From: a virus
Lineage: Duplodnaviria > Heunggongvirae > Uroviricota > Caudoviricetes
Reading direction: 5' to 3' (one strand)
Length of the DNA stretch: 34,391 nucleotides
IMG/VR virus record: IMGVR_UViG_2645727673_000011
Span: 1 to 34,391 of that record
This document shows positions 10,339-33,957 of this stretch, piece by piece. Position 1 is the first letter of the stretch; every line of letters starts with the position of its first letter. The notes under the pieces are model-generated. The model had not been told where the DNA came from, searched no databases, and worked only from the letters and a program-made list of their open reading frames with translations. Position numbers and translations under genes: made by a program.

Positions 10339-10642
10339 AATCGCAGCGCCATTAGGCGGAGATGCCATTATCGAATTTGATGATAATGAAGAAGTTTCCG
10401 GGCGTTTAAGCATTATCTCCGGTGACATTACCGAGGACATGATCGCTGAAGCCATAGCAGGGGCAAATCCCAATAGCTATATGGGATTCGTTAACACCCT
10501 TGATGCTCCCGCAAGTGATGTTCTCCGAACGCTGCATCTTTACGCTGGCTGGTTTGTTGATTGGCCAGCAGTAGATGGTGGCGATGATGACGACGACGAC
10601 GACGATGATTTTGGTGATCATGTAGACCAGATCGTATATTAA
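10328..10642 (+). CDS. Small highly acidic protein with a poly-Asp tract, translationally coupled to the tail-fibre gene
   Basis: ATG at 10328 lies 9 nt after AAGGAG (10313-10318) and overlaps the last codons of S. The 104-aa product has about 24 acidic residues and a run of nine Asp. Confidence 0.6.
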   Translation: MRIKIAAPLGGDAIIEFDDNEEVSGRLSIISGDITEDMIAEAIAGANPNSYMGFVNTLDAPASDVLRTLHLYAGWFVDWPAVDGGDDDDDDDDDFGDHVDQIVY

Positions 10643-10707
10643 CTCCCTGATTGTGCACAAATAATCTGTTCTGATATGTTAATTGTGTACTTAAAGTAAA
10701 CGCGTAG

Positions 10708-10746
10708 TGGCTTGCTTTAGGTTATGGAAGCAAGCCATTTCCTATT
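10708..10746. terminator. Hairpin between the convergent tail-fibre operon (+) and the 201-aa gene (-); likely bidirectional terminator
   Basis: tggcttgctt (10708-10717) pairs with aagcaagcca (10728-10737) as a 10-bp stem with a 10-nt loop, followed by tttcctatt. Confidence 0.5.
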
Positions 10747-10754
10747 AAAGTAGA

Positions 10755-11360
10755 TCAAAAAACTTTAATTTTGGCGTTTCGCTCACCACATATTGAGCAC
10801 TTTAGCCGATTTTTTAAGTCTTCCAGAGTCAATCCTGAAGCTACATATTGTTTAATGTCTCTTTGAGAGAGTATCACTGGTTCACGGAACCTATAACCGC
10901 CGCAGAGATGTATTATCATTATCTCAGAATCATTTTCTAACCAGTCATTAAGAGTGTTGTGTGGTTTAGAAAGTCGCTCAATATCCAAACGCCATTGTTG
11001 GATTTCATTACTGTCCCAGTCGAGATTTAGTTTAGCACGTTGGGCAACGAACCGATGTTTTCCTCTGTTAATACTAGGTTCGTAGTCTTTTCGTTGATCG
11101 GTAGTAAGGTCCTCTTCGTATAGAAATGAATCATCGTTTTTATGAGTGGGTTCAAAAATTACTTCAATAAAACTTGGCTCATACGCGTTAAAGCTTTTTT
11201 TTCTTATGAATATCCCTTGTGTACCACTCCCGTTTAAATCAGCACAAAAATTAACATCTATTCCTCGACGAAGTGCGAAAAAATAGCTATGTTCCCTCAT
11301 GGCCACAGCTAATTTGGCTATATCTATAAGGTTGTGTATTTTATCAGAATATGTATTCAT
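10755..11360 (-). CDS. Hypothetical protein encoded by an AT-rich, probably horizontally acquired gene
   Basis: 201 aa from the ATG at 11360 (MNTYSDKIHNL...) preceded by GGAAG; the track start at 11375 is TTG. Local GC is about 33% by hand count of 10801-10860. I recognise no domain. Confidence 0.6.
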   Translation of the reverse strand: MNTYSDKIHNLIDIAKLAVAMREHSYFFALRRGIDVNFCADLNGSGTQGIFIRKKSFNAYEPSFIEVIFEPTHKNDDSFLYEEDLTTDQRKDYEPSINRGKHRFVAQRAKLNLDWDSNEIQQWRLDIERLSKPHNTLNDWLENDSEIMIIHLCGGYRFREPVILSQRDIKQYVASGLTLEDLKNRLKCSICGERNAKIKVF

Positions 11361-11541
11361 GAGGCTTCCAAGCAAATATCATGACAAGCATAAAGTGTTA
11401 AAGTAATGTTACGCATCTTAACAAAGTGACTCTTGATTAATTTTAATTCGCCCTATCTTGCTTGTCTAACCATCATTGCATATACAGAGGGCAAAGAATT
11501 ACACTTCATGTAATTTATTTCCCTTTAATTTCGTATTATCA

Positions 11542-11568
11542 GGGTGCTCTCTGGCACCCCTTTTTATT
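11542..11568 (+). terminator. Intrinsic terminator-like hairpin with a T tract on the plus strand
   Basis: gggtgc-tctctg-gcaccc followed by cTTTTTaTT. It lies just past the stop of the 264-aa minus-strand gene and would stop plus-strand read-through. Confidence 0.5.
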
Positions 11569-11578
11569 CTAGTAAAAA

Positions 11579-12373
11579 TTAATCACTTTCCACCTCTTCC
11601 GTGGTGTTTTCTTGCAGCTCTGCCAATGCAGTACGACACAGGTTCCTAGCATTGGCTATAGCCACACTTTTGACTTCATCCGTCATCGTGCAGGTAATGT
11701 ACTGATCGAGTTCTTCAGCGCGGATGATGCTTTTGCCAATCAGAAACTGTATTTGCCAGAGCAGATCGGCATCCATCATCAGAATTTCTGCCGAGCCTTC
11801 AGGGCCAGCCGGGAAGGAAACATAAGACTGTTTGCCCATGCCGATAACTCGACAACTTGCTTCAAGAATTGCGCGCTTGAGGTCTGACTTTGTAACGGAA
11901 ACAGGTTGGTTTTCACCAGTGATTATGCCGTTGACATGGAAGTGGAAGGGCATGTAGCTTGAAATACGCTCTACTTTCCACACGCCAGCAAGCGATCCTT
12001 CATGCAGCACAATGGGGGTAACCGCGAGTTTCATCTCACCATATAACTGCTGGCAGATAGCTGGATTGCTGAATACATCCAAAGGTTCACACTCAAACAG
12101 CGGCGCAATCTGTATGAGGTCCATCATGGTCATACCAGGGGTACGAGCAGTAATGAATCTGCGCATGCCAGTATCCATTGTGCGCCAGATAGCTACACCA
12201 TGCTTTTTGCTCACTTCTTCAGTAAAGCCAAGGTGGCACATGATGGTTTTTTCGATAGCCAGATCAGAGATCGAAACCTTTTCGCCAGGTACACCATCAT
12301 TATTGATGGTCACTTCTACACTCTGGCCATTACGCAGGCGGTATTGAATGGTTTTAGTATTTTGTGCTGTCAT
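11579..12373 (-). CDS. Hypothetical protein, 264 aa, acidic C-terminus
   Basis: ATG at 12373; backbone-like GC; no recognisable motif. Sits where the darA/lyd/cin block lies in P1 as I recall it. Confidence 0.6.
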   Translation of the reverse strand: MTAQNTKTIQYRLRNGQSVEVTINNDGVPGEKVSISDLAIEKTIMCHLGFTEEVSKKHGVAIWRTMDTGMRRFITARTPGMTMMDLIQIAPLFECEPLDVFSNPAICQQLYGEMKLAVTPIVLHEGSLAGVWKVERISSYMPFHFHVNGIITGENQPVSVTKSDLKRAILEASCRVIGMGKQSYVSFPAGPEGSAEILMMDADLLWQIQFLIGKSIIRAEELDQYITCTMTDEVKSVAIANARNLCRTALAELQENTTEEVESD

Positions 12374-12387
12374 AGTCTTTTCTCTGC

Positions 12388-12570
12388 TTAAAAACTGATG
12401 TATTGCGCCTTCAGGTTGGTTAGGAATGTTTTCCCACCAGCGAAAGCAATATCTCGGGGTGTTCTATTCGTTAAAAGCGCGTGCCATTGCCAACTTTGGC
12501 GTTTGTTTGCGAGTTCGTGCTTTTGTCGGCGTCTTGACCACCGCTTTTCTTTCAGTCGTTTTTTACTCAT
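12388..12570 (-). CDS. Possible small basic protein (60 aa, Lys/Arg-rich N-terminus)
   Basis: ATG at 12570, 6 nt downstream of the ssb stop. Ribosome-binding site is weak, so this may be spurious. Confidence 0.3.
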   Translation of the reverse strand: MSKKRLKEKRWSRRRQKHELANKRQSWQWHALLTNRTPRDIAFAGGKTFLTNLKAQYISF

Positions 12571-12575
12571 AAACT

Positions 12576-13064
12576 CTAAAACGGAATATCGTCGTCAAAG
12601 TCCATTGGAGGTTCGTTATTGGCGTTGCTCTGAGGTTTACCGCCACCACTGTATTGCTGGTGGTTTTGAGGTTGGTTCGATTGCCCCCAGCCATTTGAGG
12701 ACTGTGAATCGTCACGGCGAGCGCCGATCATTTGCATGGTGCCGCCCTGGCTGACGATAATTTCCGTCGTGTAACGTTCTACACCGGCGTCATCTGTCCA
12801 CTTACGGGTTTTAAGTTTCCCTTCGATGTAGACCTGAGAACCTTTTCGTAAATACTCACTCGCAATTTCAGCAAGTTTCCCGAACAAAACGACTCTATGC
12901 CATTCTGTTTGCTCTTTCTGTTGGCCCGTTTGCTTGTCGCGCCATGATTCATTTGTTGCGATGCTTAGTCTTCCGACCGCTCCGCCATTTGGTATATACC
13001 TGATCTCCGGGTCTTGCCCCAGGGTACCAATCAGGATGACTTTGTTTACACCGCGTTGTGCCAC
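12576..13064 (-). CDS. ssb: Single-stranded DNA-binding protein
   Basis: Product is recognisably SSB ([25 protein letters not shown] ... [14 protein letters not shown]) with the acidic tail DFDDDIPF. Start is GTG at 13064, directly after an in-frame stop. Confidence 0.9.
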
Positions 13065-13083
13065 TTATCTTACCTAATAAAAT

Positions 13084-13100
13084 AAAATGATTAGAGCAAT
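13084..13100 (-). promoter_or_regulatory. Candidate P1 C1 repressor operator upstream of ssb, in the ssb/lyz divergent intergenic region
   Basis: Minus-strand sequence ATTGCTCTAATCATTTT matches the 17-bp C1 operator consensus ATTGCTCTAATAAATTT (recalled from memory) at 15 of 17 positions. Confidence 0.4.
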
Positions 13101-13232
13101 AATGTATATCTTTGAAACGTAGCTAACAAGTGATTTGCATTATCCTGTGCCTTCTAAAGGGATCGAGTCAGTCGGTATTGGCTGTGAATGGGTGTTTGTC
13201 CTGGAGCGTAAAAATTCGCTTATGAGGTCTTT

Positions 13233-13790
13233 ATGAAGGGAAAAACAGCCGCAGGAGGCGGTGCAATTTGCGCTATCGCGGTGATGATTACCATCGTAAT
13301 GGGTAATGGCAATGTGCGAACCAACCAGGCGGGGCTTGAGCTGATTGGTAACGCTGAAGGTTGCCGACGTGATCCATACATGTGCCCGGCGGGGGTATGG
13401 ACTGACGGGATCGGTAATACACACGGGGTAACGCCGGGTGTGCGAAAAACCGACCAGCAAATCGCCGCTGATTGGGAAAAGAATATCCTGATCGCTGAAC
13501 GCTGTATTAATCAGCACTTCCGGGGCAAAGACATGCCCGATAATGCCTTTAGTGCAATGACAAGCGCGGCATTCAATATGGGATGCAATAGCTTACGGAC
13601 CTACTACAGCAAAGCGCGAGGCATGCGAGTCGAAACGTCCATCCACAAGTGGGCGCAGAAAGGGGAATGGGTGAATATGTGTAACCATCTCCCTGATTTT
13701 GTGAACAGTAACGGCGTGCCCCTGCGAGGTTTAAAGATTCGCCGTGAAAAAGAACGCCAGCTTTGCCTGACGGGACTGGTCAATGAATAA
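13233..13790 (+). CDS. lyz: SAR endolysin (T4-lysozyme family), P1 Lyz-like
   Basis: 185 aa, ATG at 13233 after GAGG. Gly/Ala-rich signal-anchor N-terminus (AAGGGAICAIAVMITIVMG) followed by the catalytic region NAEGCRRDPYMCPAGVWTDGIGNT. Confidence 0.9.
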   Translation: MKGKTAAGGGAICAIAVMITIVMGNGNVRTNQAGLELIGNAEGCRRDPYMCPAGVWTDGIGNTHGVTPGVRKTDQQIAADWEKNILIAERCINQHFRGKDMPDNAFSAMTSAAFNMGCNSLRTYYSKARGMRVETSIHKWAQKGEWVNMCNHLPDFVNSNGVPLRGLKIRREKERQLCLTGLVNE

Positions 13791-14037
13791 ACTCCGGCAG
13801 CTCCGCAGACTTTCGACAATGAAGTTATCGCTGGCAGCGATAGTTTTCGACTCGATTTTCATGGCGGTATATGTGCTTAATGAAACGTGGCCACTGGAAC
13901 CGCTATTGTATGCCGGGCTTCGGCTGTGCCTGACATTTTTGAGCATGGCCGCGAGATTGATGCAGCAGAAAGAAACCGCTTCAGATTGTCCACGCCGCGC
14001 GGTGCGCAAATATATGGCACGCAGGCGAAGTCGATAA
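13783..14037 (+). CDS. Small membrane protein coupled to lyz; possible lysis accessory protein
   Basis: ATG at 13783 overlaps the 3' end of lyz by 8 nt. The 84-aa product has hydrophobic segments (LSLAAIVFDSIFMAVYVL and LLYAGLRLCLTFLSMAA) and a basic C-terminus. Confidence 0.45.
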   Translation: MNKLRQLRRLSTMKLSLAAIVFDSIFMAVYVLNETWPLEPLLYAGLRLCLTFLSMAARLMQQKETASDCPRRAVRKYMARRRSR

Positions 14038-14048
14038 TAGTTAACGAG

Positions 14049-14078
14049 AACCCCGGCACTCGCCGGGGTTATTTTTGG
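14049..14078 (+). terminator. Intrinsic terminator between the lyz operon (+) and pro (-)
   Basis: aaccccggc-actc-gccggggtt forms a 9-bp GC-rich stem and is followed by aTTTTTgg. Confidence 0.6.
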
Positions 14079-14081
14079 TGG

Positions 14082-16812
<2,731 letters not shown>

Positions 16813-16879
16813 TTAATTAGAATAATTCGCATCGTGTTTGAACGGAAATTTAACACTAGTCACTTGTTAAGGATTACCA

Positions 16880-19800
16880 ATGAACAAGCTATATATGCGG
16901 GTGTTTCGCTGTTCAAGTGTCAGCGAAATATTGAAATACATTAGGGCAATAACATCTCACCGAGCGCCGATTAAATACGGCGTGGAAAAGGTGGAAGGCA
17001 AAAGCTATGACCGACTGCGCCGGGAGGCGAATCAGAAGGCGATAGATTTGCTTAATTCGCTGGTGGACGGCGCGACACTGACAGATGAACAGCGCCAGAT
17101 CCTGGCTGGGTACACCGGTGAAGGCGGCATTGGCGGGTCCGTCTCCGAATATTACACACCAAAGCCGATCGCTGAAGGTGTCTGGGAGATCATGAAGCTC
17201 TACGGCGCGGACGTAGGTAACACTCTGGAACCATCGGCGGGAACCGGCGTTTTTAATGAGACAAAACCGGTTGGTACGGTGATGACCGCGACTGAGATCA
17301 GCAGTGTTTCCGGTCGTATAAACCAGTTGTTACACCCGGAAGACAGCGTACAGATTTCCCCGTTCGAACAGCTGGCTATAAGCACGCCTAACGATTCATT
17401 CGACCATGTTGTGGGTAACGTTCCGTTCGGCGGTCGTGATAACACACGCAACATCGATAAGCCTTACGCAGAAGAAACGGACATGGGTTCTTACTTCATG
17501 CTCCGCATGCTGGACAAGATAAAGCCAGGCGGATTCATGTGCGTGATTGTGCCGCCGTCCATTGTTTCAGGTTCAAACATGAAGCGGTTACGCCTGCGCT
17601 TATCCCGTAAAGCTGAATTTCTTGGCGCTCACCGCTTGCCTACCGGTACTTTTGACGCAAACGGGACCAGTACAGTCGTTGATGTGGTGCTGATGCGCAA
17701 ACATCCGGCGGAGATGGCTGAGAAAATCCCCCTGGTGGATGAAGGTACTCTTGAATCGGCAAATGTGCTTTGGCCAACGTTTATTTCTGGCAAGTGGTTT
17801 GAAAAGGACGGCCGCCGGTTTGTTCATGGCACTCAGGAGAAGGGATTCCAGGGGCGTATTGAGGTTCGTGCCGACGGGCAGATTGATAACCAGGCTCTTA
17901 AAGCGAAGCTGATTCATCGTTTCGAAAGTCGTATCGACTGGTCTTTGCTCGATATGGCTGAACCGTCACCGACCGCAGATGTTGTTGATGAAGGGGAAAT
18001 GCGCCTGATTAATGGCGTATGGCAAAAATATGCTGGTGGTCGCTGGATTGAAGCTGATGCCGGGAAGGAGCTGAAGATTGATGTTGCCAGTTATGGCGCG
18101 GATAGCTGGGAGGCTCTTCAGCGTAACCTGACTACCACAGAAGGTCGTCTCGGCATGACATTTACCCAGATGGCAAATGTCCGCGATAAGTACACCACAT
18201 CAATCAGCGACGATATGGTGCAGTTGGTGGACTGGATTAACAGCCAACCTGAAAAATACCGTGAACGCTTGTATCGCGGAGCGATGATTGGCCGGATGTT
18301 AATTGAATATCAGGACATGAAGGCCGCCGGGCATAGTGCTGAACAAATCGAACAGCAGCGCCTTTCTCTGGTATCCCGTTTGCAGGCAGAGATTGACCGT
18401 TTTGGTAACCCCGGTCGCGGTCCGATAGCGAAATTATCGGGGAGCGGTGCGCGCGCCTGGTTTGCTTTCCGTGGTGCAATTAAGCTGGATGGCACTATTT
18501 CTGACGAGCTGACAGGAAAGCTGGTTACGCATGATTCCAGCGCCAGTTATGACTCCACCAGCTATCAGGACACCCTGCGTTATCTCTATAGCGATCTTAC
18601 CCGCGATCCAATCCAGCTCGATGATTTCCGCCTTGCGTTTACCGGCGAACTGCCAGCCAGTGATGAAGAGTTGCTTAATTTATTGGCCAGCACCCCTGGT
18701 ATTGCGGTTTCACCGTATGGCGGGATTGTTCCGTTCGCCCGCGCCACCAGCGGCGACATTAACGAGATAGTGGCTCCAAAACAGGAATTCCTTGCCACAC
18801 TCCCCGACGGTCCAGTAAAAAACAACGTCCTTAATCAGCTGGCAGCGATCGAAGAGAAGCGCATCAAGACGCCAGCAGAGAATATCCGCTTTAAGCTCAA
18901 TAGCCGTTGGTTCGACCGCTCCGTCATTCTGGAGTTTTTGCAGGAAAACGGCTATCCGGATCTGCGCTATGTGCAGTCAGTGCAGCTGGAAGGCGACGAA
19001 ATGGTTTCTGACACCTATCACGGTGGTGATGGTCTGTTCGTCGGGCACCGATACGGTGTCGTCCAGCGCAAGGATAAAGAAACAGGCGAGATCCGCTACG
19101 AGTGGGACCGTAAATCAGGTGAAAACGCGACCGGGTTCCCGGCACAGCTGGAAAAGTATCTCAATGGTGCGCGTATCGGTGGCAAAGATAGCGCGACGGC
19201 GAACGGCTACCGCGAGCAGATGGCACTGCTTGAGGACCAGTTCAATAAGTGGATCAAGACGCACGATCGCTACGATGAGCTGGTTGCCAAATACAACGAT
19301 GTGTTCAATAGCAATATCCCGTATGAACACTCTGGCGATCCGCTTGGGTTGAAGGGATTAAGCGGTAAGCGCCAGCCATTTGATTACCAGAATAGCGAGG
19401 TGCGCCGACTGTCCGAAGATGGGCGCGGCATCCTGGGCTTTGGCACCGGGCTGGGTAAAACCACGACCGCGCTGGCGCTTGAGGCGTTCAACTATGAGAA
19501 CGGTCGCTCTACCCGTACTGCGTATGTAGTGCCTAAATCAGTGCTGGAAAATTGGTATTACGAAACAAAAGAATTCCTGAGTGAAGAGGCATTCAGTAAC
19601 TACCTGTTCGTCGGTCTTGATGTGCTGATGGATGGCGATCAGATTCGCCAGGTGCCGGTGCTCGATGAGAACGGTAAACCTGTTCTTGGTACTGATGGCA
19701 CTCCAGTTATGCGCGATGCTCTTAAGCTGGCAGATGAAGCCACTATCACGGCGCGGATGAACGCGATCCCGCACTCAAATTACCGTGCAGTCGTGTTTAC

Positions 19801-22800
19801 CAAAGAACAATACGCCCGCATTCCGCTACGTGATGACACCATAGATGAGCATGCACAGGATATGCTTTATGACTTCGTTGCCGCCGGGCGCGTAGCCAGT
19901 GCAATGGATTCCGACTCCCACCGCAAAGAGGCCGCGCGTCGCCGGGTATTGTCGGAGTATTCAGATACCGGTACCGAAAAAGCAGAGAAGTATCCGTACT
20001 TTGAGGATATGGGCTTCGACAGCGTGATTGCTGACGAAGGCCACAACTACCGCAATTGCTATAAAAATGGTCGCGAAGCGTCACAACTGGCCTATCTGCC
20101 CACCAGCGCGGTGGCGCAATCGGCGCGAGATATGGCAATTAAAAACGCGTACCTGATGAAAAAGAATGGCGGGCGCGGGCCGGTTCTCCTGACTGCAACG
20201 CCAGTCGTTAACACCCCGATCGATGCATACAACATGCTTTCTCATGTTCTGCCGAAGGAATACTGGCAGAACATGGGGATCTACGGTCCTGATGACTTCG
20301 TTAAATTCTTCGGCAAGACCAGGCTGGAAACGGTACAGAAAATCAGCGGTGAAGTTGAAGAAAAAATGGCGCTGGTGGGCTTTGAAAACCTTGATGCGCT
20401 GCGCGGTATATTCCATCGCTGGGTAACGCTTAAAACGGCGGAAGACGTTAAGGATACCGTGGAGATCCCGGAGCTGGACGAACACCAGCAGGATGCACCA
20501 CTTACTGAAGAACAACTGGCGGCGTATGAAGAATTGCGTCAGCAGGCGGAAGCGGCGGCCAAAGCCAACAATGGCGTAACGACCTCGGTCAATGAAGACG
20601 GCGTGATTGAGCACGAGAAAGCCCGTCCGATCTTCTCAATAATCAGGGATATGGACCGCGTATGTACTGACATGGACCTGTACTATCGCCGGATCACCTA
20701 TCGTTTCCTGCCGGAGTACGCCGATGCGGTGCAGCAGCTGGCGGACAGTTTGCCTAAACAAGCCACCAGCGAAGACGACGACAGTGATGATTCAATCACG
20801 CAGCAATCGCAATACTCCCTGATAGATAAGGGCGAGTTTATTCAGTTGCAGGTTCCGGAAGCGTTCGAGCAGGAAGTGAATAAGCGCCTGGCCAGGTTTG
20901 GCATTGACGAACAGACCGTAACTCACCCCGTTACGCCGAAATACGCGAAGCTGATCGCCACGCTGAAGGAGTTTTTCCCGGAAGGTAAGCAAATCATCTT
21001 CACCGATGAAAAAACGAAGCACCAGAAGCTCAAGCGCATTATCTGCAATGCTCTAAACCTTGAACCTTCAAAGGTGGGGATCCTGAATGCTCAGACGGTT
21101 GCCGAGGCAGGTAAAACCGGTAAGAAACTGAAAGCGGTTAAACCGCCGAAAGAGCTACCGGATGAACCAACAGATGCACAGATAGCGAAATACAACGAGC
21201 AAATGGCTCTGTATGACGCCTATATCGCGCAGCAAAATGAAATGTCGTTGGGCGGTCTGGAAAAGATTGCAGCCGACTTCCAGGAGGGCCGGACTCCGAT
21301 CATCATCTGCAACAAAAAGGCAGAGGTGGGTATCAACCTGCATCGAGGAACGACGGATATCCACCACCTGACGTTGCCGTGGACACCAGCCAGTATCGCA
21401 CAGCGTAACGGTCGCGGTGCCCGAGTTGGTTCCAACCGTGCAAGCGTTCGCGTTCACTACTACTGCGGCAAGGGGTCTTTCGATGAATACCGACTGAAGA
21501 CGCTGAAGCGTAAAGCAGGCTGGATCTCCGATATCCTCCGTTCAGATAAGTCAGAAATGGAGAACGCCGATGCCAATGACATGATCGAAATGCAGATGTA
21601 TACCGCGAAGGATGACGGCGAACGTCTGGCAATGATGCAGGTTCAAATGGATAAGGCGAAAGCTGCGAAACGCGCTCGCCAGAAAGAACAGGCTACTATC
21701 GACCTTCAGAACTACATCAAGGCGCAGCACGCAGCTGGCGAGGATGTGGAGGTACTTACCGCTGAATTAGAGCGAAGCAAAGCGGAACTTGAAAAGACCA
21801 CCGTCGAGGTAGCTAAATTCAAACAGGCGGCAATGGCCAAGGCAGCGGATAACGCAGACTGGAAGGCCCGCTGGGGGAGTGTCCATCACACAGACCGTAT
21901 GTTGTTAGCACAGTATCGCGCGTCGTTGAAAAGCGCCATTCAGCGCAAGGCTAATATCTCTCAGGCCATCTCCCGCTATGAGAAATTATTGAACCGTACT
22001 CAGAAGGCCGCGACGGATATCAAACGCCTGCGCCCGCTGATGGAGGATGCAATAAATAAAGGCATTCTGGATATTGATCCTGACATGGTTAACCATGCGA
22101 GTGAGTTCCTTGTTATCGGCGATCGCTCATGGCGTGTAGGCCAATACTACGATTGTGCCGGTGATATCGTTCGCATTAAGTCGCTGGACTTCGACAGCCA
22201 GCGCGCAGACGTGGAGATCATCTTCACCTTCAAAGGCACCAAATCTGGTAATTGGGATGTGAAGACGCTGGATAAACAGGTTGATGTAACTCCTGATGAA
22301 GATGCTGTTATGCAGAAAATCAGTGGTGGCGTCTCCATCGCCGGGATTAACGACATCATTTCCTGTGACGATTTCTACCGTTTCCGGCAGCGCGGCATGA
22401 TCAAAATCACTGACTCATACGGCGTTCAGACTACAGAGTCAGGCTATAGCATTGATTTTGTTGGTACCTATACGGACCCACTGAAGCATGCGGTTTACCC
22501 GGATCGCCGTGACGGCGCGCTGAAGTCGTCAATTGCAAAATGGGTGCTTGGTATGATGTCGGAAGGGAATAACCGCCAGATCCGTTCGGCAGAAACATTC
22601 CTGGTTGAATTGTTTGGCTCCAATTATGGCGATGTAATCGCGTCATACGGAGATACGCTATCCCCTGAAGTAATTCAGGAGAAAATAGCGGATGCGATCG
22701 CAAAAATGCCGGAGAAAACAAGCCAGGGGGCTACTCGTAACGGGGATTCTGAACTTGAGGTCACCAATGCCATTTTCGGTACCCATGAGTTCCGGGCGTC

Positions 22801-23647
22801 AGATTATGAGATCACCACAGCACAGTTTGGCACCATTGGCATTTACAGCAATAAAGCCGAGATCAAGCAGGCAATGGACGCAGCAAGCGCGCGCATCGCA
22901 GCAGAACGGGAAGCCAATCTGAATCATGCAGTCGCCGCACTGACTCAATCGTGGGTAACAGCAATCAGGGAGGCCGCCACCACAGGGAAAATCACACCTG
23001 CAATTGCGGATGTCGTAAACGACGGCTCTAAATTTATGGATGCCTATCAAATGGATGCGGTGCAGTTGCCATCAGCCTATGGCCAATTCAGCTATCGCAT
23101 GACCTACAACCTGGTATCAATGTTTTCCGACCTTGCCATCCTTGGGCTGGTGGATCTTAACGAGGTTACGCCGGAATTGCTCAGCATGCGCAAGAATCAT
23201 GTGGAGATATTGCAGAGAATTAACACGGTTCTTGCCGGGCGCACCGATGAAGAGAAACAGGCCGACGCTGATCGGATAAACCTGGCCCTTGGCAACATCA
23301 CGGAGGAAGAAATTGCCGCCAGAAACGAGAAACAAGAAGAGTTATCATCAATACAGGGTGATGCCACCAGCATAGCTCAGTCTCTTGGTCTGAATTATCG
23401 CGTATCCACCGCCGACCTGAAGATGATGTACGCACCAAAATTCGCCGCTGGCGAGGTATTTGGGCTTCAGGAAGCCTCAGGCATGAAAGGCGTTCTTTTC
23501 CGTGCGAAAGACGCAATCAAGGCGAAATTCGGCGCTCGCTGGCTGCCAGCGAAGGCGAAGAACAGCGATTTCCCGGGTAACTGGTGGATTATCGAGACAA
23601 AACACAACGTGGCGGACGTTCTGGCCGTCATCCAACAATACGCATAA
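16880..23647 (+). CDS. darB: DarB antirestriction protein: N-terminal N6-adenine methyltransferase-like domain plus DExH helicase domain
   Basis: 2255 aa, the length I recall for P1 DarB. Methyltransferase-like motif HVVGNVPFGG; helicase Walker A GFGTGLGKTT and motif II IADEGHNYRN. Confidence 0.9.
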   Translation: MNKLYMRVFRCSSVSEILKYIRAITSHRAPIKYGVEKVEGKSYDRLRREANQKAIDLLNSLVDGATLTDEQRQILAGYTGEGGIGGSVSEYYTPKPIAEGVWEIMKLYGADVGNTLEPSAGTGVFNETKPVGTVMTATEISSVSGRINQLLHPEDSVQISPFEQLAISTPNDSFDHVVGNVPFGGRDNTRNIDKPYAEETDMGSYFMLRMLDKIKPGGFMCVIVPPSIVSGSNMKRLRLRLSRKAEFLGAHRLPTGTFDANGTSTVVDVVLMRKHPAEMAEKIPLVDEGTLESANVLWPTFISGKWFEKDGRRFVHGTQEKGFQGRIEVRADGQIDNQALKAKLIHRFESRIDWSLLDMAEPSPTADVVDEGEMRLINGVWQKYAGGRWIEADAGKELKIDVASYGADSWEALQRNLTTTEGRLGMTFTQMANVRDKYTTSISDDMVQLVDWINSQPEKYRERLYRGAMIGRMLIEYQDMKAAGHSAEQIEQQRLSLVSRLQAEIDRFGNPGRGPIAKLSGSGARAWFAFRGAIKLDGTISDELTGKLVTHDSSASYDSTSYQDTLRYLYSDLTRDPIQLDDFRLAFTGELPASDEELLNLLASTPGIAVSPYGGIVPFARATSGDINEIVAPKQEFLATLPDGPVKNNVLNQLAAIEEKRIKTPAENIRFKLNSRWFDRSVILEFLQENGYPDLRYVQSVQLEGDEMVSDTYHGGDGLFVGHRYGVVQRKDKETGEIRYEWDRKSGENATGFPAQLEKYLNGARIGGKDSATANGYREQMALLEDQFNKWIKTHDRYDELVAKYNDVFNSNIPYEHSGDPLGLKGLSGKRQPFDYQNSEVRRLSEDGRGILGFGTGLGKTTTALALEAFNYENGRSTRTAYVVPKSVLENWYYETKEFLSEEAFSNYLFVGLDVLMDGDQIRQVPVLDENGKPVLGTDGTPVMRDALKLADEATITARMNAIPHSNYRAVVFTKEQYARIPLRDDTIDEHAQDMLYDFVAAGRVASAMDSDSHRKEAARRRVLSEYSDTGTEKAEKYPYFEDMGFDSVIADEGHNYRNCYKNGREASQLAYLPTSAVAQSARDMAIKNAYLMKKNGGRGPVLLTATPVVNTPIDAYNMLSHVLPKEYWQNMGIYGPDDFVKFFGKTRLETVQKISGEVEEKMALVGFENLDALRGIFHRWVTLKTAEDVKDTVEIPELDEHQQDAPLTEEQLAAYEELRQQAEAAAKANNGVTTSVNEDGVIEHEKARPIFSIIRDMDRVCTDMDLYYRRITYRFLPEYADAVQQLADSLPKQATSEDDDSDDSITQQSQYSLIDKGEFIQLQVPEAFEQEVNKRLARFGIDEQTVTHPVTPKYAKLIATLKEFFPEGKQIIFTDEKTKHQKLKRIICNALNLEPSKVGILNAQTVAEAGKTGKKLKAVKPPKELPDEPTDAQIAKYNEQMALYDAYIAQQNEMSLGGLEKIAADFQEGRTPIIICNKKAEVGINLHRGTTDIHHLTLPWTPASIAQRNGRGARVGSNRASVRVHYYCGKGSFDEYRLKTLKRKAGWISDILRSDKSEMENADANDMIEMQMYTAKDDGERLAMMQVQMDKAKAAKRARQKEQATIDLQNYIKAQHAAGEDVEVLTAELERSKAELEKTTVEVAKFKQAAMAKAADNADWKARWGSVHHTDRMLLAQYRASLKSAIQRKANISQAISRYEKLLNRTQKAATDIKRLRPLMEDAINKGILDIDPDMVNHASEFLVIGDRSWRVGQYYDCAGDIVRIKSLDFDSQRADVEIIFTFKGTKSGNWDVKTLDKQVDVTPDEDAVMQKISGGVSIAGINDIISCDDFYRFRQRGMIKITDSYGVQTTESGYSIDFVGTYTDPLKHAVYPDRRDGALKSSIAKWVLGMMSEGNNRQIRSAETFLVELFGSNYGDVIASYGDTLSPEVIQEKIADAIAKMPEKTSQGATRNGDSELEVTNAIFGTHEFRASDYEITTAQFGTIGIYSNKAEIKQAMDAASARIAAEREANLNHAVAALTQSWVTAIREAATTGKITPAIADVVNDGSKFMDAYQMDAVQLPSAYGQFSYRMTYNLVSMFSDLAILGLVDLNEVTPELLSMRKNHVEILQRINTVLAGRTDEEKQADADRINLALGNITEEEIAARNEKQEELSSIQGDATSIAQSLGLNYRVSTADLKMMYAPKFAAGEVFGLQEASGMKGVLFRAKDAIKAKFGARWLPAKAKNSDFPGNWWIIETKHNVADVLAVIQQYA

Positions 23648-23653
23648 CAGGAG

Positions 23654-23671
23654 CGCCCGGTTCGCCGGGCG
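23654..23671 (+). other. GC-rich hairpin between darB and ulx
   Basis: cgcccgg-ttcg-ccgggcg forms a 7-bp all-GC stem with no U tract; possible RNA stability or attenuation element. Confidence 0.3.
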
Positions 23672-23680
23672 TCGCATAAT

Positions 23681-24121
23681 ATGGCCACACTATCTGATAC
23701 AATAAAACCGAATAAAACATATCTTGAGGCGGTACTCCGTACAGCGTTGTTAGGAAAGACAGAAGACGAATACGTTGATTTCTTCCTGTCAGGGCTACGC
23801 GGGCGATTACTGAAAAATCCCCGCCTGTACCGCAGCTATGGTCCATACTGGCCGGAAATTAAAAAATTATTACTGGAGCGCGGTTATGGTAATTTCGGTC
23901 GTCTCGTTGACCGTGACGTTCGCAAAATTTACCGTTATGACCGCCCGGCGCTGACGCTCATAGCCGCGACGCTCTACAGCCAGGAGCGTTTTGATAATGG
24001 TCAGATATACTCAGCCTGGCATTTACTGCCAGTACCTGAAGAGGTTGACGACCAGGACTATGAGTTTGAGTCTTACGATTTGGAAGTTGAAGCCTTAGCA
24101 CAGGCTGGAGAGAAAACTTGA
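23681..24121 (+). CDS. ulx: Ulx-like protein of unknown function
   Basis: 146-aa ORF with ATG at 23681 immediately after darB. Named by position only. Confidence 0.55.
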   Translation: MATLSDTIKPNKTYLEAVLRTALLGKTEDEYVDFFLSGLRGRLLKNPRLYRSYGPYWPEIKKLLLERGYGNFGRLVDRDVRKIYRYDRPALTLIAATLYSQERFDNGQIYSAWHLLPVPEEVDDQDYEFESYDLEVEALAQAGEKT

Positions 24122-24366
24122 AAAAGCGATACTACACAGTAAAGCATGGGACGCTACGAGCATTACAAGAGTTTGCTGATAAGCATAACGTTGAGGTGCG
24201 CAGGGAGGGGGGAAGTAAAGCTCTGCGCATGTACCGTCCGGACGGGAAATGGCGTACGGTCGTCGATTTCAAAACTAACAGCGTTCCCCAGGGCGTCCGC
24301 GATCGGGCATTCGAAGAATGGGAGCAGATCATCATAGATAATGCATTGCTTCTCAATGCGGATTAA
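24118..24366 (+). CDS. lxc: Lxc-like small protein (in P1, a modulator of C1 repressor)
   Basis: 82-aa ORF starting at TTG 24118, overlapping the ulx stop and preceded by GGAGAG. No in-frame ATG nearby. Named by position only. Confidence 0.45.
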   Translation: MKKRYYTVKHGTLRALQEFADKHNVEVRREGGSKALRMYRPDGKWRTVVDFKTNSVPQGVRDRAFEEWEQIIIDNALLLNAD

Positions 24367-24525
24367 ACTTCCCCAAATAATGGCTGTTTGCTCGCCGAGC
24401 ATCGCTCAAAGAAACACGATTATTCAAACATATAGATAGTGATAGTGCCCTCGTATAAGTGTGACAACTTCTGGCTCTAGTGGGCTGGGGAGGCGGCGCT
24501 TTGTTGCTAAATGATCTGGTTTAAA

Positions 24526-26466
24526 ATGGATATGAAAAAAGAAACGATTTTTTCCGAAGTAGAAACGGCTAACAGCAAGCAACTGGCTGTGTTGAAAGCT
24601 AATTTCCCTCAGTGTTTTGATAAAAACGGAGCCTTCATTCAAGAAAAATTGCTTGAGATTATTAGGGCATCGGAAGTTGAACTCTCTAAAGAATCATACA
24701 GCTTGAACTGGCTGGGTAAATCTTATGCCCGTTTGTTGGCCAATCTACCACCGAAAACGTTGTTGGCAGAAGATAAAACTCATAACCAACAAGAAGAGAA
24801 CAAGAACAGTCAACACCTGTTAATCAAAGGGGATAATCTCGAAGTATTGAAGCATATGGTTAATGCTTACGCTGAAAAGGTGAAGATGATTTACATTGAC
24901 CCACCATACAATACAGGTAAGGATGGGTTCGTTTATAATGATGATCGCAAATTTACACCTGAGCAGCTTTCTGAACTAGCAGGCATCGACCTCGATGAGG
25001 CTAAACGCATATTAGAATTTACCACCAAGGGGTCAAGCAGTCATAGTGCATGGCTGACATTCATTTACCCACGCCTTTATATTGCTCGTGAATTAATGAG
25101 AGAAGACGGGACTATTTTTATTTCTATTGACCATAATGAGTTCAGTCAATTAAAACTAGTTTGCGACGAGATCTTTGGTGAGCAAAACCATGTTGGGGAT
25201 CTAGTATGGAAAAATGCAACTGATAACAACCCTTCAAATATCGCTGTAGAGCATGAATATATTATTGTTTACACAAAAAACAAAGAGCAGCTTATAAGTG
25301 AGTGGAAATCTAATATCTCCGATGTAAAAAACTTACTTGTCAACATAGGTGAAGAATTTGCATCAAAATACACTGGCAATGAACTTCAGGAAAAATATAC
25401 CCAGTGGTTTCGTGAACACAGATCTGAATTATGGCCTCTTGACCGATACAAATATATAGACAAAGACGGCATCTATACTGGTAGTCAGAGCGTCCACAAC
25501 CCCGGAAAAGAGGGTTACAGATATGATATTATACATCCAAAAACTAAGAAGCCATGCAAACAACCTCTTATGGGATATCGTTTTCCATTAGATACAATGG
25601 ATAGGCTTCTGTCTGAAGAAAAGATCATCTTCGGTGATGATGAAAACAAAATTATAGAACTAAAAGTTTATGCTAAGGATTACAAACAGAAATTAAGCTC
25701 CGTTATCCATCTTGATGGGCGTGTTGCAACGAACGAACTTAAAGAGCTGTTCCCAGAAATGACTCAACCATTCACAAATGCTAAAACTATAAAATTAGTA
25801 GAAGATTTAATATCTTTTGCATGTGATGGAGAGGGTATTGTTTTGGATTTTTTTGCTGGGTCAGGAACTACAGCGCATACAGTTTTTAATTTGAATAACA
25901 AAAATAAAACGTCGTATCAGTTTATTACAGTTCAACTAGATGAACCTACAAAAGATAAATCTGATGCCATGAAGCATGGCTATAATACAATATTTGACTT
26001 AACAAAGGAGCGTTTAATTAGGGCGTCTAAAAAAAATAGGGATCAGGGGTTTAAGGTATATCAACTAATGCCAGATTTTCGCGCTAAAGACGAATCAGAA
26101 CTTACACTGTCTAATCATACATTCTTTGATGATGTTGTCTTGACGCCTGAACAATATGACACTCTATTAACTACATGGTGCCTGTATGATGGCAGTTTGC
26201 TAACAACACCTATTGAAGATGTTGATCTTGGTGGCTACAAAGCACATTTGTGCGATGGTCGTCTGTATTTGATTGCACCTAATTTTACTAGCGAAGCATT
26301 GAAAGCGTTACTTCAAAAGGTGGATTCAGACAAAGACTTTGCTCCAAACAAAGTCGTGTTTTATGGCAGCAATTTTGAAAGCGCAAAGCAAATGGAACTC
26401 AATGAAGCACTAAAAAGTTATGCTAATAAAAAATCTATTGAGTTAGATTTGGTGGTGAGGAACTAA
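24526..26466 (+). CDS. mod: Type III restriction-modification methyltransferase (Mod), EcoP1I-like
   Basis: N6-adenine methyltransferase motifs DPPYNTG and FFAGSGTTAH. In-frame ATGs at 24511, 24526 and 24532; I chose 24526 because it gives 646 aa, the length I recall for P1 Mod. Confidence 0.85.
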   Translation: MDMKKETIFSEVETANSKQLAVLKANFPQCFDKNGAFIQEKLLEIIRASEVELSKESYSLNWLGKSYARLLANLPPKTLLAEDKTHNQQEENKNSQHLLIKGDNLEVLKHMVNAYAEKVKMIYIDPPYNTGKDGFVYNDDRKFTPEQLSELAGIDLDEAKRILEFTTKGSSSHSAWLTFIYPRLYIARELMREDGTIFISIDHNEFSQLKLVCDEIFGEQNHVGDLVWKNATDNNPSNIAVEHEYIIVYTKNKEQLISEWKSNISDVKNLLVNIGEEFASKYTGNELQEKYTQWFREHRSELWPLDRYKYIDKDGIYTGSQSVHNPGKEGYRYDIIHPKTKKPCKQPLMGYRFPLDTMDRLLSEEKIIFGDDENKIIELKVYAKDYKQKLSSVIHLDGRVATNELKELFPEMTQPFTNAKTIKLVEDLISFACDGEGIVLDFFAGSGTTAHTVFNLNNKNKTSYQFITVQLDEPTKDKSDAMKHGYNTIFDLTKERLIRASKKNRDQGFKVYQLMPDFRAKDESELTLSNHTFFDDVVLTPEQYDTLLTTWCLYDGSLLTTPIEDVDLGGYKAHLCDGRLYLIAPNFTSEALKALLQKVDSDKDFAPNKVVFYGSNFESAKQMELNEALKSYANKKSIELDLVVRN

Positions 26467-26468
26467 TC

Positions 26469-29381
26469 ATGTCAAAAGGGTTCACTCTCGAAAAGAACTT
26501 GCCGCATCAGAAAGCAGGAGTCGATGCGGTGATGAATGTTTTTGTTTCCGCAACACCTCACCTGACGGATAATGTTGCTGTTCGCCTTTTAGCTAATCCT
26601 GAACTGAAGCTGTCTGAACAACAATACTACAACAATATAAAAAATGTTCAGGCGTTCAATGGTATTGCGCACTCAAAAGATAATCACAATGCTAAAAGCA
26701 ACATCATTGATGTTTCTATGGAGACAGGTACAGGCAAGACGTACACCTATATCAAAACTATTTTTGACCTGAATAAATCATTTGGTATTAACAAGTTTAT
26801 CATCATTGTTCCGACTCTATCTATCAAGGCCGGAACCGTTAACTTTTTAAAAAGTGATGCTTTAAAAGAACACTTCCGGGATGATTACAAGCGTGAGCTG
26901 AGAACTTACGTTGTTGAAAGTCAGAAAAACGCTGGCAAAAATACAAAATCGTATATGCCTCAGGCTATACATGATTTTGTTGAAGCAAGTAACTTCAATA
27001 AAAAATATATACACGTTCTTGTTATTAACTCAGGAATGATCAACTCTAAGTCTTTAACGGATACTTACGATACTGGCTTGCTTGATAATCAGTTTAATAC
27101 TCCAGTTGACGCGCTCAGAGCTGTAAAACCATTTATCATCATTGACGAACCACATAGATTTCCTACTGGTAAAAAAACATGGGAAAACATAGAGAAATTT
27201 AACGCACAATATATTATCCGCTATGGCGCAACCTTTAGCGAAGGCTATAAGAACCTGGTTTATCGTCTTACAGCCGTGGACGCATTTAACGATGATCTCG
27301 TTAAAGGTATTGATGCATATATTGAGGATATAGTCGGCGATGGTAACGCAAACCTCAAATTCGTCAAATCTGACGGAAAGGAAGCTACATTTGAACTGAA
27401 TGAAAACAACAACAAAAAATCGTTTAAGTTAGCTAAAGGTGAATCACTGTCTAAGACGCATAGTGCGATCCATGATTTAACTCTTGATGCTTTAAACAAG
27501 AGCACAGCAGTGTTGAGTAATGGTATTGAGTTGAAGATTGGTAGCTCAATAAATCCCTATTCTTACGATCAGACACTCGCTGATAACATGATGCGTAAGG
27601 CTGTCAAAGAACACTTTAAGTTAGAAAAAGAACTTCTGACACAAAGGCCACGCATAAAGCCTCTTACTCTTTTCTTTATTGACGATATTGAAGGCTATCG
27701 TGACGGTAATGATATTTCCGGAAGCCTGAAGACCAAATTCGAAGAATACGTTCTGGCAGAAGCTAATGAACTGTTAAAAACAGAGCAAGATGCGTTTTAT
27801 AAAAACTATCTTGAAAAAACAGTCACAAATATATCTTCCGTTCATGGTGGTTATTTCTCAAAAGATAACAGTGATAAGGATGATAAAATCGAGCAGGAAA
27901 TCAACGAAATCCTTCATGACAAAGAGCTTTTGCTGTCTTTAGATAATCCCCGTCGGTTTATTTTCTCAAAATGGACGTTGCGTGAGGGGTGGGATAATCC
28001 TAATGTTTTTCAGATCTGTAAGCTCCGTTCGAGCGGTAGTACCACATCTAAGCTTCAAGAGGTAGGGCGCGGTTTGCGTCTTCCTGTGAATGAATACATG
28101 TGTCGAGTGAAAGACCGCAATTTTACCCTTAAATATTATGTTGATTTTACAGAAAAGGATTTTGTTGACTCACTTGTTAAAGAGGTCAACGAGAGTTCTT
28201 TCAAAGAAAGAGTTCCAAGTAAGTTTACTCAAGAGCTTAAGGAACAAATCATGGCTCAGTATCCTGAGCTTTCATCCAGAGCACTAATGAATGAACTTTT
28301 CAATGATGAAATCATTGATGACAATGATAATTTCAAAGATTCAGATGCCTATAGCCGCTTAAAATCCAAATATCCAGCAGCATTCCCTATAGGAGTGAAA
28401 CCTGGTAAAATCAAAAAAGCTACTGATGGAAAAAGACGCACTAAAATGCGTGTTGGTAAGTTCAGTGAGCTGAAAGAACTATGGGATTTGATCAATCAAA
28501 AAGCGGTGATTGAGTACAAAATAAACAGTGAAAGTGAATTTTTATCCATTTTCAAGTCATTCATGCTCGAAGAAACAGAACGATTTACCAAATCAGGCGT
28601 TCATACTCGCATTGATAAAATTTACATCCACAATGATATGGCAATGTCGAAAAGCATTGTCAGTGATGACGATGACTTTGCTAAGCTGAACACAATGAGC
28701 TATCGAGAGTTTCTCGATAACTTATCACAGACTATTTTTGTTAAACACGGTACTTTACATAAAGTTTTTTGTGATATAAAAGACACTATTAATATCACTG
28801 AATACCTTAATATTCAAACAATCAGAAAAATTAAATCTGGTTTTAGTAAGTATTTGTTGAACAATTCGTTTAATAAATTCAGCCTCGGATATAATTTGAT
28901 TTCGGGTTCAATTCATCCTACAAAGTTCACAAATGCTGATGGTAATCCTCTAGGCGAGGTATTATCAAGTGATCTTGGTGTATTGCAGGATAATGCAAAA
29001 GCACCATTAGATACTTATCTTTTTGAAGAAGTTTTTTATGATTCAGAGCTTGAAAGGCGTAATATAACAGATAGAGAGATCCAGTCTGTTGTTGTTTTTT
29101 CAAAGATACCGAAGAATTCTATTAAGATCCCGGTAGCTGGTGGATACACTTACTCACCCGATTTTGCTTATGTTGTAAAAACAGCGGAAGGTGATTATCT
29201 TAATTTTATCATTGAAACAAAAAACGTAGATAGTAAGGATAGTTTACGGCTTGAAGAAAAACGGAAAATTGAACATGCCCAAGCGCTTTTCAATCAAATA
29301 AGTCAGTCTGTTAAAGTTGAATTCAGAACGCAGTTTGCTAATGATGATATTTATCAGTTAATCAAGAGCGCATTACCATAA
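26469..29381 (+). CDS. res: Type III restriction endonuclease subunit (Res), EcoP1I-like
   Basis: 970 aa, ATG 2 nt after the mod stop with GAGGAA upstream. Helicase Walker A METGTGKTYTY and motif II IIIDEPH; C-terminal PD-(D/E)xK-like nuclease motif (SPDFAYVVK ... IIETKN). Confidence 0.9.
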   Translation: MSKGFTLEKNLPHQKAGVDAVMNVFVSATPHLTDNVAVRLLANPELKLSEQQYYNNIKNVQAFNGIAHSKDNHNAKSNIIDVSMETGTGKTYTYIKTIFDLNKSFGINKFIIIVPTLSIKAGTVNFLKSDALKEHFRDDYKRELRTYVVESQKNAGKNTKSYMPQAIHDFVEASNFNKKYIHVLVINSGMINSKSLTDTYDTGLLDNQFNTPVDALRAVKPFIIIDEPHRFPTGKKTWENIEKFNAQYIIRYGATFSEGYKNLVYRLTAVDAFNDDLVKGIDAYIEDIVGDGNANLKFVKSDGKEATFELNENNNKKSFKLAKGESLSKTHSAIHDLTLDALNKSTAVLSNGIELKIGSSINPYSYDQTLADNMMRKAVKEHFKLEKELLTQRPRIKPLTLFFIDDIEGYRDGNDISGSLKTKFEEYVLAEANELLKTEQDAFYKNYLEKTVTNISSVHGGYFSKDNSDKDDKIEQEINEILHDKELLLSLDNPRRFIFSKWTLREGWDNPNVFQICKLRSSGSTTSKLQEVGRGLRLPVNEYMCRVKDRNFTLKYYVDFTEKDFVDSLVKEVNESSFKERVPSKFTQELKEQIMAQYPELSSRALMNELFNDEIIDDNDNFKDSDAYSRLKSKYPAAFPIGVKPGKIKKATDGKRRTKMRVGKFSELKELWDLINQKAVIEYKINSESEFLSIFKSFMLEETERFTKSGVHTRIDKIYIHNDMAMSKSIVSDDDDFAKLNTMSYREFLDNLSQTIFVKHGTLHKVFCDIKDTINITEYLNIQTIRKIKSGFSKYLLNNSFNKFSLGYNLISGSIHPTKFTNADGNPLGEVLSSDLGVLQDNAKAPLDTYLFEEVFYDSELERRNITDREIQSVVVFSKIPKNSIKIPVAGGYTYSPDFAYVVKTAEGDYLNFIIETKNVDSKDSLRLEEKRKIEHAQALFNQISQSVKVEFRTQFANDDIYQLIKSALP

Positions 29382-29391
29382 TTCTAGTTTA

Positions 29392-29416
29392 AAAGGAGGT
29401 GAAAACCTCCTTTTTT
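29392..29416. terminator. Bidirectional intrinsic terminator between convergent res (+) and mat (-)
   Basis: aaaggaggt-gaaa-acctccttt followed by TTTTTT on the plus strand; the complement also carries a short U tract. Confidence 0.65.
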
Positions 29417-29455
29417 GACATCCTACACGACCTGAAAGAAGTGGCGTTTAGGCCG

Positions 29456-30097
29456 TTAAAAATAGTTCCCCTCTCCAGTTAAGATTCCATGAGGAACTCT
29501 TTTTTCTGCAAGTCTCTGTGTGCCCCGAATTATGTTAATGAGAGGGTTTAGTAACGATGGTTCCTGGTGTGCCTCAACTTCTCCAGCCATTGCCCTGATG
29601 TAGTCGTCGCTGGCAACGTTGTTGTATTCCGTCGCAAAGCAACATAGTAACGTCAGAACATGCTCTGTCGTTATTTCGCTCCAGTTGATGTTGAAAAATT
29701 CATCGCCTTTTTTGTCATGTTCGGAATCGAAGATGCTTTGGTGGAGGATGTATTTGCCGGATTCCTTGCGCGGTAACTTGATCGCTTTCTGGCGTTCCAA
29801 TTCCTTGTAAATCTGCATTGCTTCAATCAGTACCGGTCTGCCGTTCATGAAGGGATCACGCAACCTTACACGCTGGCCAACTCGACCGGTAATAAAGCTG
29901 TTTTCCTCTTCCACCAGCACGATAAAACCCTTTTCCTCTTTTTCTCGCAATTCGCGCAGCAGTTGGAGTTCCATATCGCGGCGGCGTTCAGGGTAGCTGG
30001 TCCGCTCAGCCATTATCAGCTCATTGTTGATCCATGCGGCAGTCATTGACGCCGGTTTGCCGACGCTCATCGAAACAACGCATATTTTCTTATCCAT
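29456..30097 (-). CDS. mat: Mat-like protein (P1 maturation control); function uncertain
   Basis: 213 aa from the ATG at 30097 (MDKKICVVSM...) with AAGGGG upstream. The longer track ORF runs through an upstream terminator hairpin. Named by position between res and ref. Confidence 0.5.
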   Translation of the reverse strand: MDKKICVVSMSVGKPASMTAAWINNELIMAERTSYPERRRDMELQLLRELREKEEKGFIVLVEEENSFITGRVGQRVRLRDPFMNGRPVLIEAMQIYKELERQKAIKLPRKESGKYILHQSIFDSEHDKKGDEFFNINWSEITTEHVLTLLCCFATEYNNVASDDYIRAMAGEVEAHQEPSLLNPLINIIRGTQRLAEKRVPHGILTGEGNYF

Positions 30098-30955: not shown

Positions 30956-30993
30956 GGGGTCGTCTCAGAAAACGGAAAATAAAGCACGCTAAG
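30956..30993. repeat. 38-bp terminal inverted repeat of a Tn21-subgroup Tn3-family transposon (tnpA-proximal end)
   Basis: GGGGTCGTCTCAGAAAACGGAAAATAAAGCACGCTAAG; the tnpA stop codon lies inside it, as is usual for Tn3-family elements. Confidence 0.8.
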
Positions 30994-33955: not shown

Positions 33956-33957
33956 AT

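Follow-up and report, generated by a model that had tools for sequence, protein, structure and literature searches.

An intact darB gene without its dar-operon partners in a P1-derived phage-plasmid segment carrying a recent 8.3-kb deletion

The Dar antirestriction system of bacteriophage P1, which was reportedly described by Iida et al. in 1987, has six components encoded by darB–ulx and hdf–darA–ddrA–ddrB. We analyzed this system in a 34,391-nucleotide stretch of viral DNA (IMG/VR record IMGVR_UViG_2645727673_000011, positions 1–34,391; hereafter the window), which represented the whole contig LBBD01000045.1 of the draft Escherichia coli assembly GCA_000987535.1. Compared with the P1 reference, the window was a segment of a P1-type phage-plasmid in reversed orientation, and positions 10000–30000 showed 95% coverage and 96.6% identity; it is a single 34-kb contig, and repA, parAB, c1, and pacAB fall outside it. 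Hdf and DarA enter the P1 procapsid first (Piya et al. 2017), as restated in a passage of PMC12810830. Other passages of that article describe P1 particles without Hdf or DarA as devoid of all other Dar proteins, and report that deletion of hdf or darA lowered the proportion of normal-sized heads from ~80% to ~15%. Sections of PMC9024508, including Table 1 for the role of Ulx, name Ulx and DdrB as aiding the incorporation of DarB into the P1 head. P1-like phage-plasmids are also known to turn into plasmids through gene loss (Pfeifer and Rocha 2024, PMC10879196).

The window contained an intact darB gene on the plus strand (16880–23647) with an ATG start, encoding an antirestriction head protein of 2255 residues with N6-adenine methyltransferase-like and SF2/DExH helicase-like regions. 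The original prediction had described a full-length darB with both sets of motifs intact, and this open reading frame (ORF) was confirmed by an end-to-end alignment with P1 DarB (residues 1–2255), which showed 98.5% identity with 33 substitutions and zero gaps. Methyltransferase motif I (LEPSAGTG, residue 116) and a motif IV variant (NVPF, ~180), as well as helicase motifs I (GTGLGKT, ~857), II (DEGH, 1052), and VI (QRNGRGAR, 1508), were identical to those of P1. Judged by curated family cut-offs, the Pfam calls were N6_Mtase (32.4 bits; cut-off, 20.4), Eco57I (31.8; 25.3), SNF2-rel_dom (42.1; 24.9), Helicase_C (27.7; 23.5), and ResIII (24.0; 22.5). The protein was identical to WP_046659821.1 of the E. 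coli plasmids pDETEC1 and pMB3362_2. The exact sequence was present on 93 contigs, the longest of 4.77 Mb, which suggests that a P1-like element is chromosomally integrated, or was scaffolded into the chromosome, in some genome.

The partners of DarB were sought with 30 P1 proteins in a six-frame search of the whole window (tblastn, E ≤ 1e-3). Twenty-two of the 30 proteins matched at 92–100% identity, in addition to a divergent S and a DdrB remnant of 292 residues. There was no match anywhere in the window to Hdf, DarA, DdrA, LydA, LydB, LydC, U, or U', and the sole match to Cin was a transposon resolvase at the far end (33%). DdrB was represented by residues 704–995 only, at 9460–10335. The claim that the darA-operon partners were not at their expected locus was therefore upheld, and they were absent from the rest of the window too. 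Whereas darB, ulx, lxc, and the surrounding head genes were syntenic with those of P1 and 94–100% identical, four of the six components were missing or truncated (hdf, darA, and ddrA absent; ddrB cut), and the Dar system as defined cannot assemble from the genes of the window. Among plasmids in PLSDB, at least 80% of darB was found in 441 and at least 80% of hdf–darA–ddrA in 458, and a 2025 survey reported that all the P1-group phage-plasmids it extracted carried the complete Dar set. These data indicated that the two loci usually occur together and that the window is exceptional. The exception is of a known kind. The complete circular plasmid pCAVP819_2 had darB, ulx, and lxc intact and a darA fragment (residues 37–639), and hdf, ddrA, and ddrB were found nowhere in it; ddrA and ddrB were kept in the complete circular plasmid CP023896 ('unnamed3'), in which hdf and darA were not found.

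The cause of the loss became visible when the window was compared with pDETEC1 (NZ_CP116167.1) and pMB3362_2 (NZ_CP103706.1), both of which were typed IncQ1,IncY. The regions flanking the break showed 100% or 99.98% identity with these plasmids. Window 1–9460 was 100% identical to pDETEC1, and window 9459–31936 differed from it by a single mismatch (one single-nucleotide polymorphism (SNP) in 22.5 kb). In pDETEC1 these two blocks lay 8,300 bp further apart, and positions 50476–58775 of its record were missing from the window. The junction was located at 9459–9460, with the left parental sequence matching to 9460 and the right one from 9459, so that the dinucleotide TA was shared. An 11-bp microhomology given by BLAST at this point was rejected, because its alignment includes a gap and only 2 bp overlap exactly. 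The missing segment contained the last 456 codons of a 1475-residue tail-fibre gene S that is divergent from P1, a partial tail-fibre-assembly pseudogene, a cin pseudogene, lydC, lydA, lydB, hdf, darA, ddrA, and ddrB codons 1–703; except for the S part, these genes were 92–99% identical to P1, in which the order is hxr, ddrB, ddrA, darA, hdf, lydB, lydA, lydC, cin, C-segment, S, R. Unlike the window, pDETEC1 and pMB3362_2 kept this 8.3-kb segment with the full lyd–hdf–darA–ddrA–ddrB block, whereas their DarB has the same protein accession as that of the window. In pDETEC1, hdf–darA–ddrA occurred in one copy, at the very locus deleted in the window. In the record of pDETEC1 itself, cin was frameshifted and truncated and the tail-fibre-assembly gene lacked its N-terminus (56705–57346; locus L007, 7706–8347), which indicated that the lineage was already decaying as a phage before the 8.3-kb deletion.

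With P1 as the only reference, 10,972 bp (P1 25422–36393) seemed to have been exchanged for 1,608 bp (window 7851–9458), because P1 homology ended at window 7850 and restarted at 9459. The original prediction that the neighbouring locus had been replaced is understandable from this gap between 7850 and 9459, but it did not hold. Window 7851–9458 was 100% identical to pDETEC1 and is the tail-fibre variable region of the lineage, not foreign DNA; relative to pDETEC1 the event was a pure deletion of 8,300 bp with nothing foreign inserted, and it left the ddrB remnant fused to S. No record spanning the junction was found among 5,426 complete E. coli genomes, 72,556 plasmids (PLSDB), IMG/VR, and the GTDB representatives.

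The fusion generated an in-frame hybrid ORF of 1311 residues on the plus strand (6403–10338), consisting of S residues 1–1019 and DdrB residues ~704–995, with the junction at codon 1020. By tblastn, S residues 1–667 matched at 6403–8370 and DdrB residues 704–995 at 9460–10335, and Phage_fiber_2 was the only Pfam family assigned. The ddrB remnant (9461–10338, plus strand; the last ~292 codons) showed 98.6% identity with residues 704–995 of P1 DdrB, and a HELGH metallopeptidase-like motif was kept at hybrid residue 1188, which corresponds to P1 DdrB residue 872. The hybrid protein is WP_404854525.1, named in RefSeq 'pyocin knob domain-containing protein', and the exact protein was present on four contigs, the longest of 94,279 bp. 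One of these, JADAQM010000040.1, belongs to the independent assembly GCA_014878395.1, and a comparison of 20.3 kb of it with the window gave 100% identity. The deletion thus defines a small lineage and was observed in independent assemblies. The hybrid is probably accidental, the chance of an in-frame junction being one in three.

The consequences for DarB were considered by homology with P1. Because the window lacks hdf, darA, and ddrA and keeps only part of ddrB, we infer that DarB would not be loaded into the head and that its packaging is lost. The deletion joined S codon 1019 to ddrB codon ~704 at the common TA. It took away the tail-fibre end that binds the receptor, two genes that were already degenerate (tail-fibre assembly and cin), lydC, lydA, lydB, hdf, darA, ddrA, and ddrB codons 1–703. 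It left darB, ulx, and their promoter untouched, with too little time since then for decay. Without Hdf and DarA, no Dar protein, DarB included, would enter the procapsid, heads would be mostly small, and the distal part of the tail fibre would be missing. Most likely, the element would then persist as a plasmid and not as an infectious phage, and darB would be stranded without a role in the capsid.

Laboratory P1 phages with hdf or darA knocked out resemble what is predicted for the window, namely particles devoid of every Dar protein, heads that are mostly small, and a phage sensitive to type I restriction. Those phages, however, carry single-gene losses and are otherwise viable, whereas the window also lost the tail-fibre end, lydA, lydB, and lydC, and ddrA and ddrB, and by this comparison it is unlikely that infectious particles would be formed from the element at all. 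LydA holin, LydB, a full tail fibre S, U, Cin, and the invertible C-segment, which belong to a functional P1-like phage-plasmid, were all lacking in the window. By analogy with P1, infectivity has probably been lost and the element is no longer a working phage. The original prediction also raised the possibility that antirestriction against type I systems is compromised. To the extent that it depends on DarB, this function should indeed be lost; as the tail-fibre C-terminus and LydA/LydB disappeared in the same deletion and the phage is probably defective itself, the matter is largely moot.

The P1-derived plasmids described in PMC10879196 share with the window a P1 backbone, a resistance transposon, and the loss of tail and lysis functions, and the window has what defines them there, a P1 backbone without the genes for a full lytic cycle. 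The window differs from them in being at a very early stage, with a single 8.3-kb deletion in a backbone that otherwise equals that of a relative in which the region is kept. The element is most likely a defective prophage kept as a plasmid with a resistance transposon. The single SNP in 22.5 kb relative to pDETEC1 indicated that the event was very recent, which explains why darB is still intact; because its intactness follows from recency, it provides no evidence for a new function. Taken together, it is likely that the window represents a P1-derived IncY-type phage-plasmid of the pDETEC1/pMB3362_2 lineage hit by one very recent 8.3-kb deletion, and we consider with good confidence that the recent loss of the operon left darB stranded in a phage that is decaying to a plain plasmid. 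There is then no hidden alternative route of DarB loading to seek, and the question posed by the original prediction is answered. On the strength of markers such as darB, P1-like elements in clinical E. coli are frequently classified as phages or taken to be capable of anti-defence; in the window the darB marker is intact, whereas the Dar system and the virion are not.

Several points weigh against darB being a stranded leftover. The same cell could have harboured a second Dar element, for example an integrated P1-like prophage or a D6-like phage-plasmid of a compatible type. The functional consequences given above are all extrapolated from the behaviour of P1 mutants. The in-frame S–DdrB junction with HELGH kept could hint at selection. 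Furthermore, darB was intact in every deletion variant seen, which is expected if the deletions are recent but fits a capsid-independent role as well.

If the partners were supplied in trans, from another contig, an integrated P1-like prophage, or a D6-like phage-plasmid, DarB would still be loaded. The window is just one of the contigs in a draft assembly, chromosomes can contain P1-like segments (the exact DarB lies on the 4.77-Mb contig), and Dar homologues are carried by elements of the D6 group. However, in the parental-type plasmid the operon occurred once, exactly where the window has its deletion, and the complete circular plasmids with analogous deletions had no second copy; from these relatives, an intact copy of the partners elsewhere in the replicon of the window seems unlikely. 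P1/IncY replicons are mutually incompatible, and a second P1-type replicon would thus not be compatible with that of the window. Moreover, Dar proteins supplied in trans would not mend the loss of the tail-fibre C-terminus or of lydA/lydB. We therefore regard supply in trans as improbable.

It could also be argued that darB was kept for a capsid-independent function, for example to methylate DNA or act as a helicase in the plasmid state, or that DarB takes another route into the capsid. The window lineage and each of the four sister-clone variants examined across darB, three of which had lost dar-operon genes, kept darB, ulx, and lxc intact despite heavy deletion in the adjoining interval, and the catalytic motifs and the predicted promoter were all preserved. 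This preservation is uninformative on selection, because the deletions were extremely recent (one SNP in 22.5 kb for the window; four SNPs in 78.5 kb among the sister plasmids). No alternative partner gene was found in the window, and the published data place DarB in the virion with its incorporation dependent on Hdf and DarA. For the suggestion in the original prediction that DarB is packaged differently, we found no evidence, and the deletion is too recent for such an adaptation. Retention of darB for a function of its own is accordingly very improbable. It is hardly conceivable that misassembly produced the S–DdrB junction and that the plasmid itself has the full operon, even though the source is a short-read-era draft assembly and the junction was in no complete genome or plasmid searched. 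The 2 bp common to the parental sequences are far too short to explain a graph-based mis-join, the identical hybrid protein is on four contigs from at least two independent assemblies (one contig of 94 kb), and deletions ending at the same points occur in closed circular plasmids.

The end points of the deletion that left darB stranded were compared with those of related plasmids. Four sister plasmids sequenced in Canada, the USA, China, and Switzerland carried different deletions between gene 16 and isaA; these were pCAVP819_2, CP023896, pEC21Z078-80K (of which there are three further records of identical length), and pL3452210II_1. A direct comparison showed the first three to be one clone, with four mismatches in 78.5 kb between pCAVP819_2 and CP023896; pL3452210II_1 was assigned through shared protein accessions. 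In coordinates of the pDETEC1 reverse complement, the break points were I (7475), F (10448), A (11224), J (13979), G (14962), E (15233), C (17031), H (18029), B (19524), and D (22084). The window joined A to B, pCAVP819_2 joined A to E and C to D, CP023896 joined F to C, pEC21Z078-80K joined G to H and B to D, and pL3452210II_1 joined I to J. In the sequences of the loci analyzed, these junctions lay at 9310–9311 and 11103–11109 of L006, 10081–10082 of L008, 17949–17950 of L013, and 16270–16271 of L101 (pL3452210II_1). Sites A, B, C, and D, the first two of which are those of the window, were each used twice with different partners, and the side that was retained varied. In pL3452210II_1 (L101, 15602–16822) the whole dar operon was kept, and R, S, cin, lydC, and lydA were lost in a deletion from gene 16 to lydB; this architecture indicated that the interval is pruned from either side and that the dar genes are not specifically affected.

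The crossover was at TA in six of the seven clean junctions, compared with 5.6% TA among the dinucleotides of the region (P about 2e-7). The overlap was 2 bp in six of the seven, five of these being TA, and the seventh overlap was GGGGGTA, which ends in TA. The hexamer GNTANC was present at six of eight TA sites, compared with 8.5% of the TA sites of the region (P about 9e-6), and a post-hoc search for the best palindromic motif gave the same count in 3 of 50,000 random sets; these figures are for five plasmid architectures, and microhomology between partners inflates some of the similarity. The placement of the break points was thus far from random. The two sites of the window, AGTAAC and GTTATT, are half-sites. 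Among 87 IMG/VR contigs holding the parental site B, there were no junctions at sites A, B, or D, which indicated that use of these hotspots is not general among contigs classified as phage.

Two kinds of known activity were considered for this pattern, and neither was supported. Against type III or type IIS cleavage at a distance, no fixed-offset k-mer was present at more than three of six sites, as for random TA sites. Against recombination by Cin at quasi-cix sites, the crossovers lay 2 to 22 nt off cix-like sequences, and each of these plasmids has either lost cin or carries it as a pseudogene. Recombination at the cix and quasi-cix sites of P1 was reportedly studied by Iida and colleagues in the 1980s. 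The Cin/cix system resembles the TA junctions in its 2-bp crossover, its position beside the invertible tail-fibre region, and the reuse of sites with different partners. It differs from them in that the TA-centred flanks lacked …AAACC half-sites, a cixR-like sequence at about window 7764 was unused, and all the events seen here were deletions. The ddrB site was superficially cixR-like (AACCAGGTTATTGG compared with AACCAAGGTATTGG), and cixR-like 18-mers were present in darA and ddrB.

No known enzyme could be assigned to the TA/GNTANC junction pattern. In the literature, GNTANC appeared only as a TA context that is non-permissive for Himar1 insertion (PMC5241402), which suggests an unusual local DNA structure and gives no mechanism. 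The pattern fits a sequence-preferring double-strand break with a 2-nt stagger and religation of the self-complementary TA ends, or a relaxed recombinase with a 2-bp core. It is possible, and we put it forward tentatively as somewhat short of an even chance, that the deletion that stranded darB was no random slip and belongs to a family of break-and-join events that are directed by sequence and prune the interval from the tail fibre to isaA in P1-derived plasmids time after time. The recurrent break points could be more important than the stranded darB itself: if the observation holds, reuse of TA/GNTANC sites by independent plasmids would suggest that a specific DNA-cutting or recombination activity shapes the decay, and the transition from phage to plasmid would become mechanistically testable. 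Other polymorphisms recur near the dar genes and do not cleanly follow the TA rule. Four IMG/VR contigs (L030, L050, L052, and L095) shared a deletion of ~1.3 kb within ddrB (17452/18757 in the pDETEC1 reverse complement), which was examined as a further test case and had an ambiguous junction relative to pDETEC1, and 16 further IMG/VR loci lacked an isaB segment (20705/21644) and had a substitute of ~30 nt in its place.

The genes around darB were largely those of P1. A predicted sigma-70 promoter, PdarB, was located at 16793–16823 on the plus strand as an exact 31-nt match to the P1 annotation, which is itself a prediction. Downstream of darB, on the same strand, were the intact ulx (23681–24121; 146 residues, 98.6% identity with P1 Ulx) and lxc (24118–24366; 82 residues, 100% identity with P1 Lxc), the final gene after darB and ulx. 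The intact pro (head processing) and prt (portal) genes were divergent from darB on the minus strand (14082–16803) and showed 98.8 and 99.1% identity with P1, respectively. The lysis genes that remained, lyz, lydD, and lydE, were on the plus strand at 13233–14099 with 93–100% identity, and hxr, which follows ddrB in P1, was intact on the plus strand at 10328–10642 with 94% identity with P1 Hxr.

At the far end of the window, a Tn3-family transposon (30977–34391) abutted ref, with a TnAs3 transposase at 30989–33955 and a resolvase ORF at 33958–34347. This TnAs3 beside ref is the resistance transposon carried by the element. The P1 region after ref (c8, cre, and lox) was not in the window, and pMB3362_2 had an extra IS4321 at the boundary between ref and the transposon. 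The IS1 located between isaA and isaB in the P1 reference was absent at window 11485–11493, where two P1 alignments overlapped by 9 bp; this is the size of the IS1 target duplication, which indicated that the window shows the uninterrupted isaA/isaB state. Likewise missing from the window was the IS5 insertion found within mod of the P1 reference, and res was 92.5% identical to that of P1. In the type III mod gene (24511–26466), the central ~1 kb (25093–26097) had no blastn alignment to P1 mod and its G+C content fell to ~36%; this divergence suggests a different target-recognition domain and hence, as predicted from sequence, a different EcoPI-type specificity.

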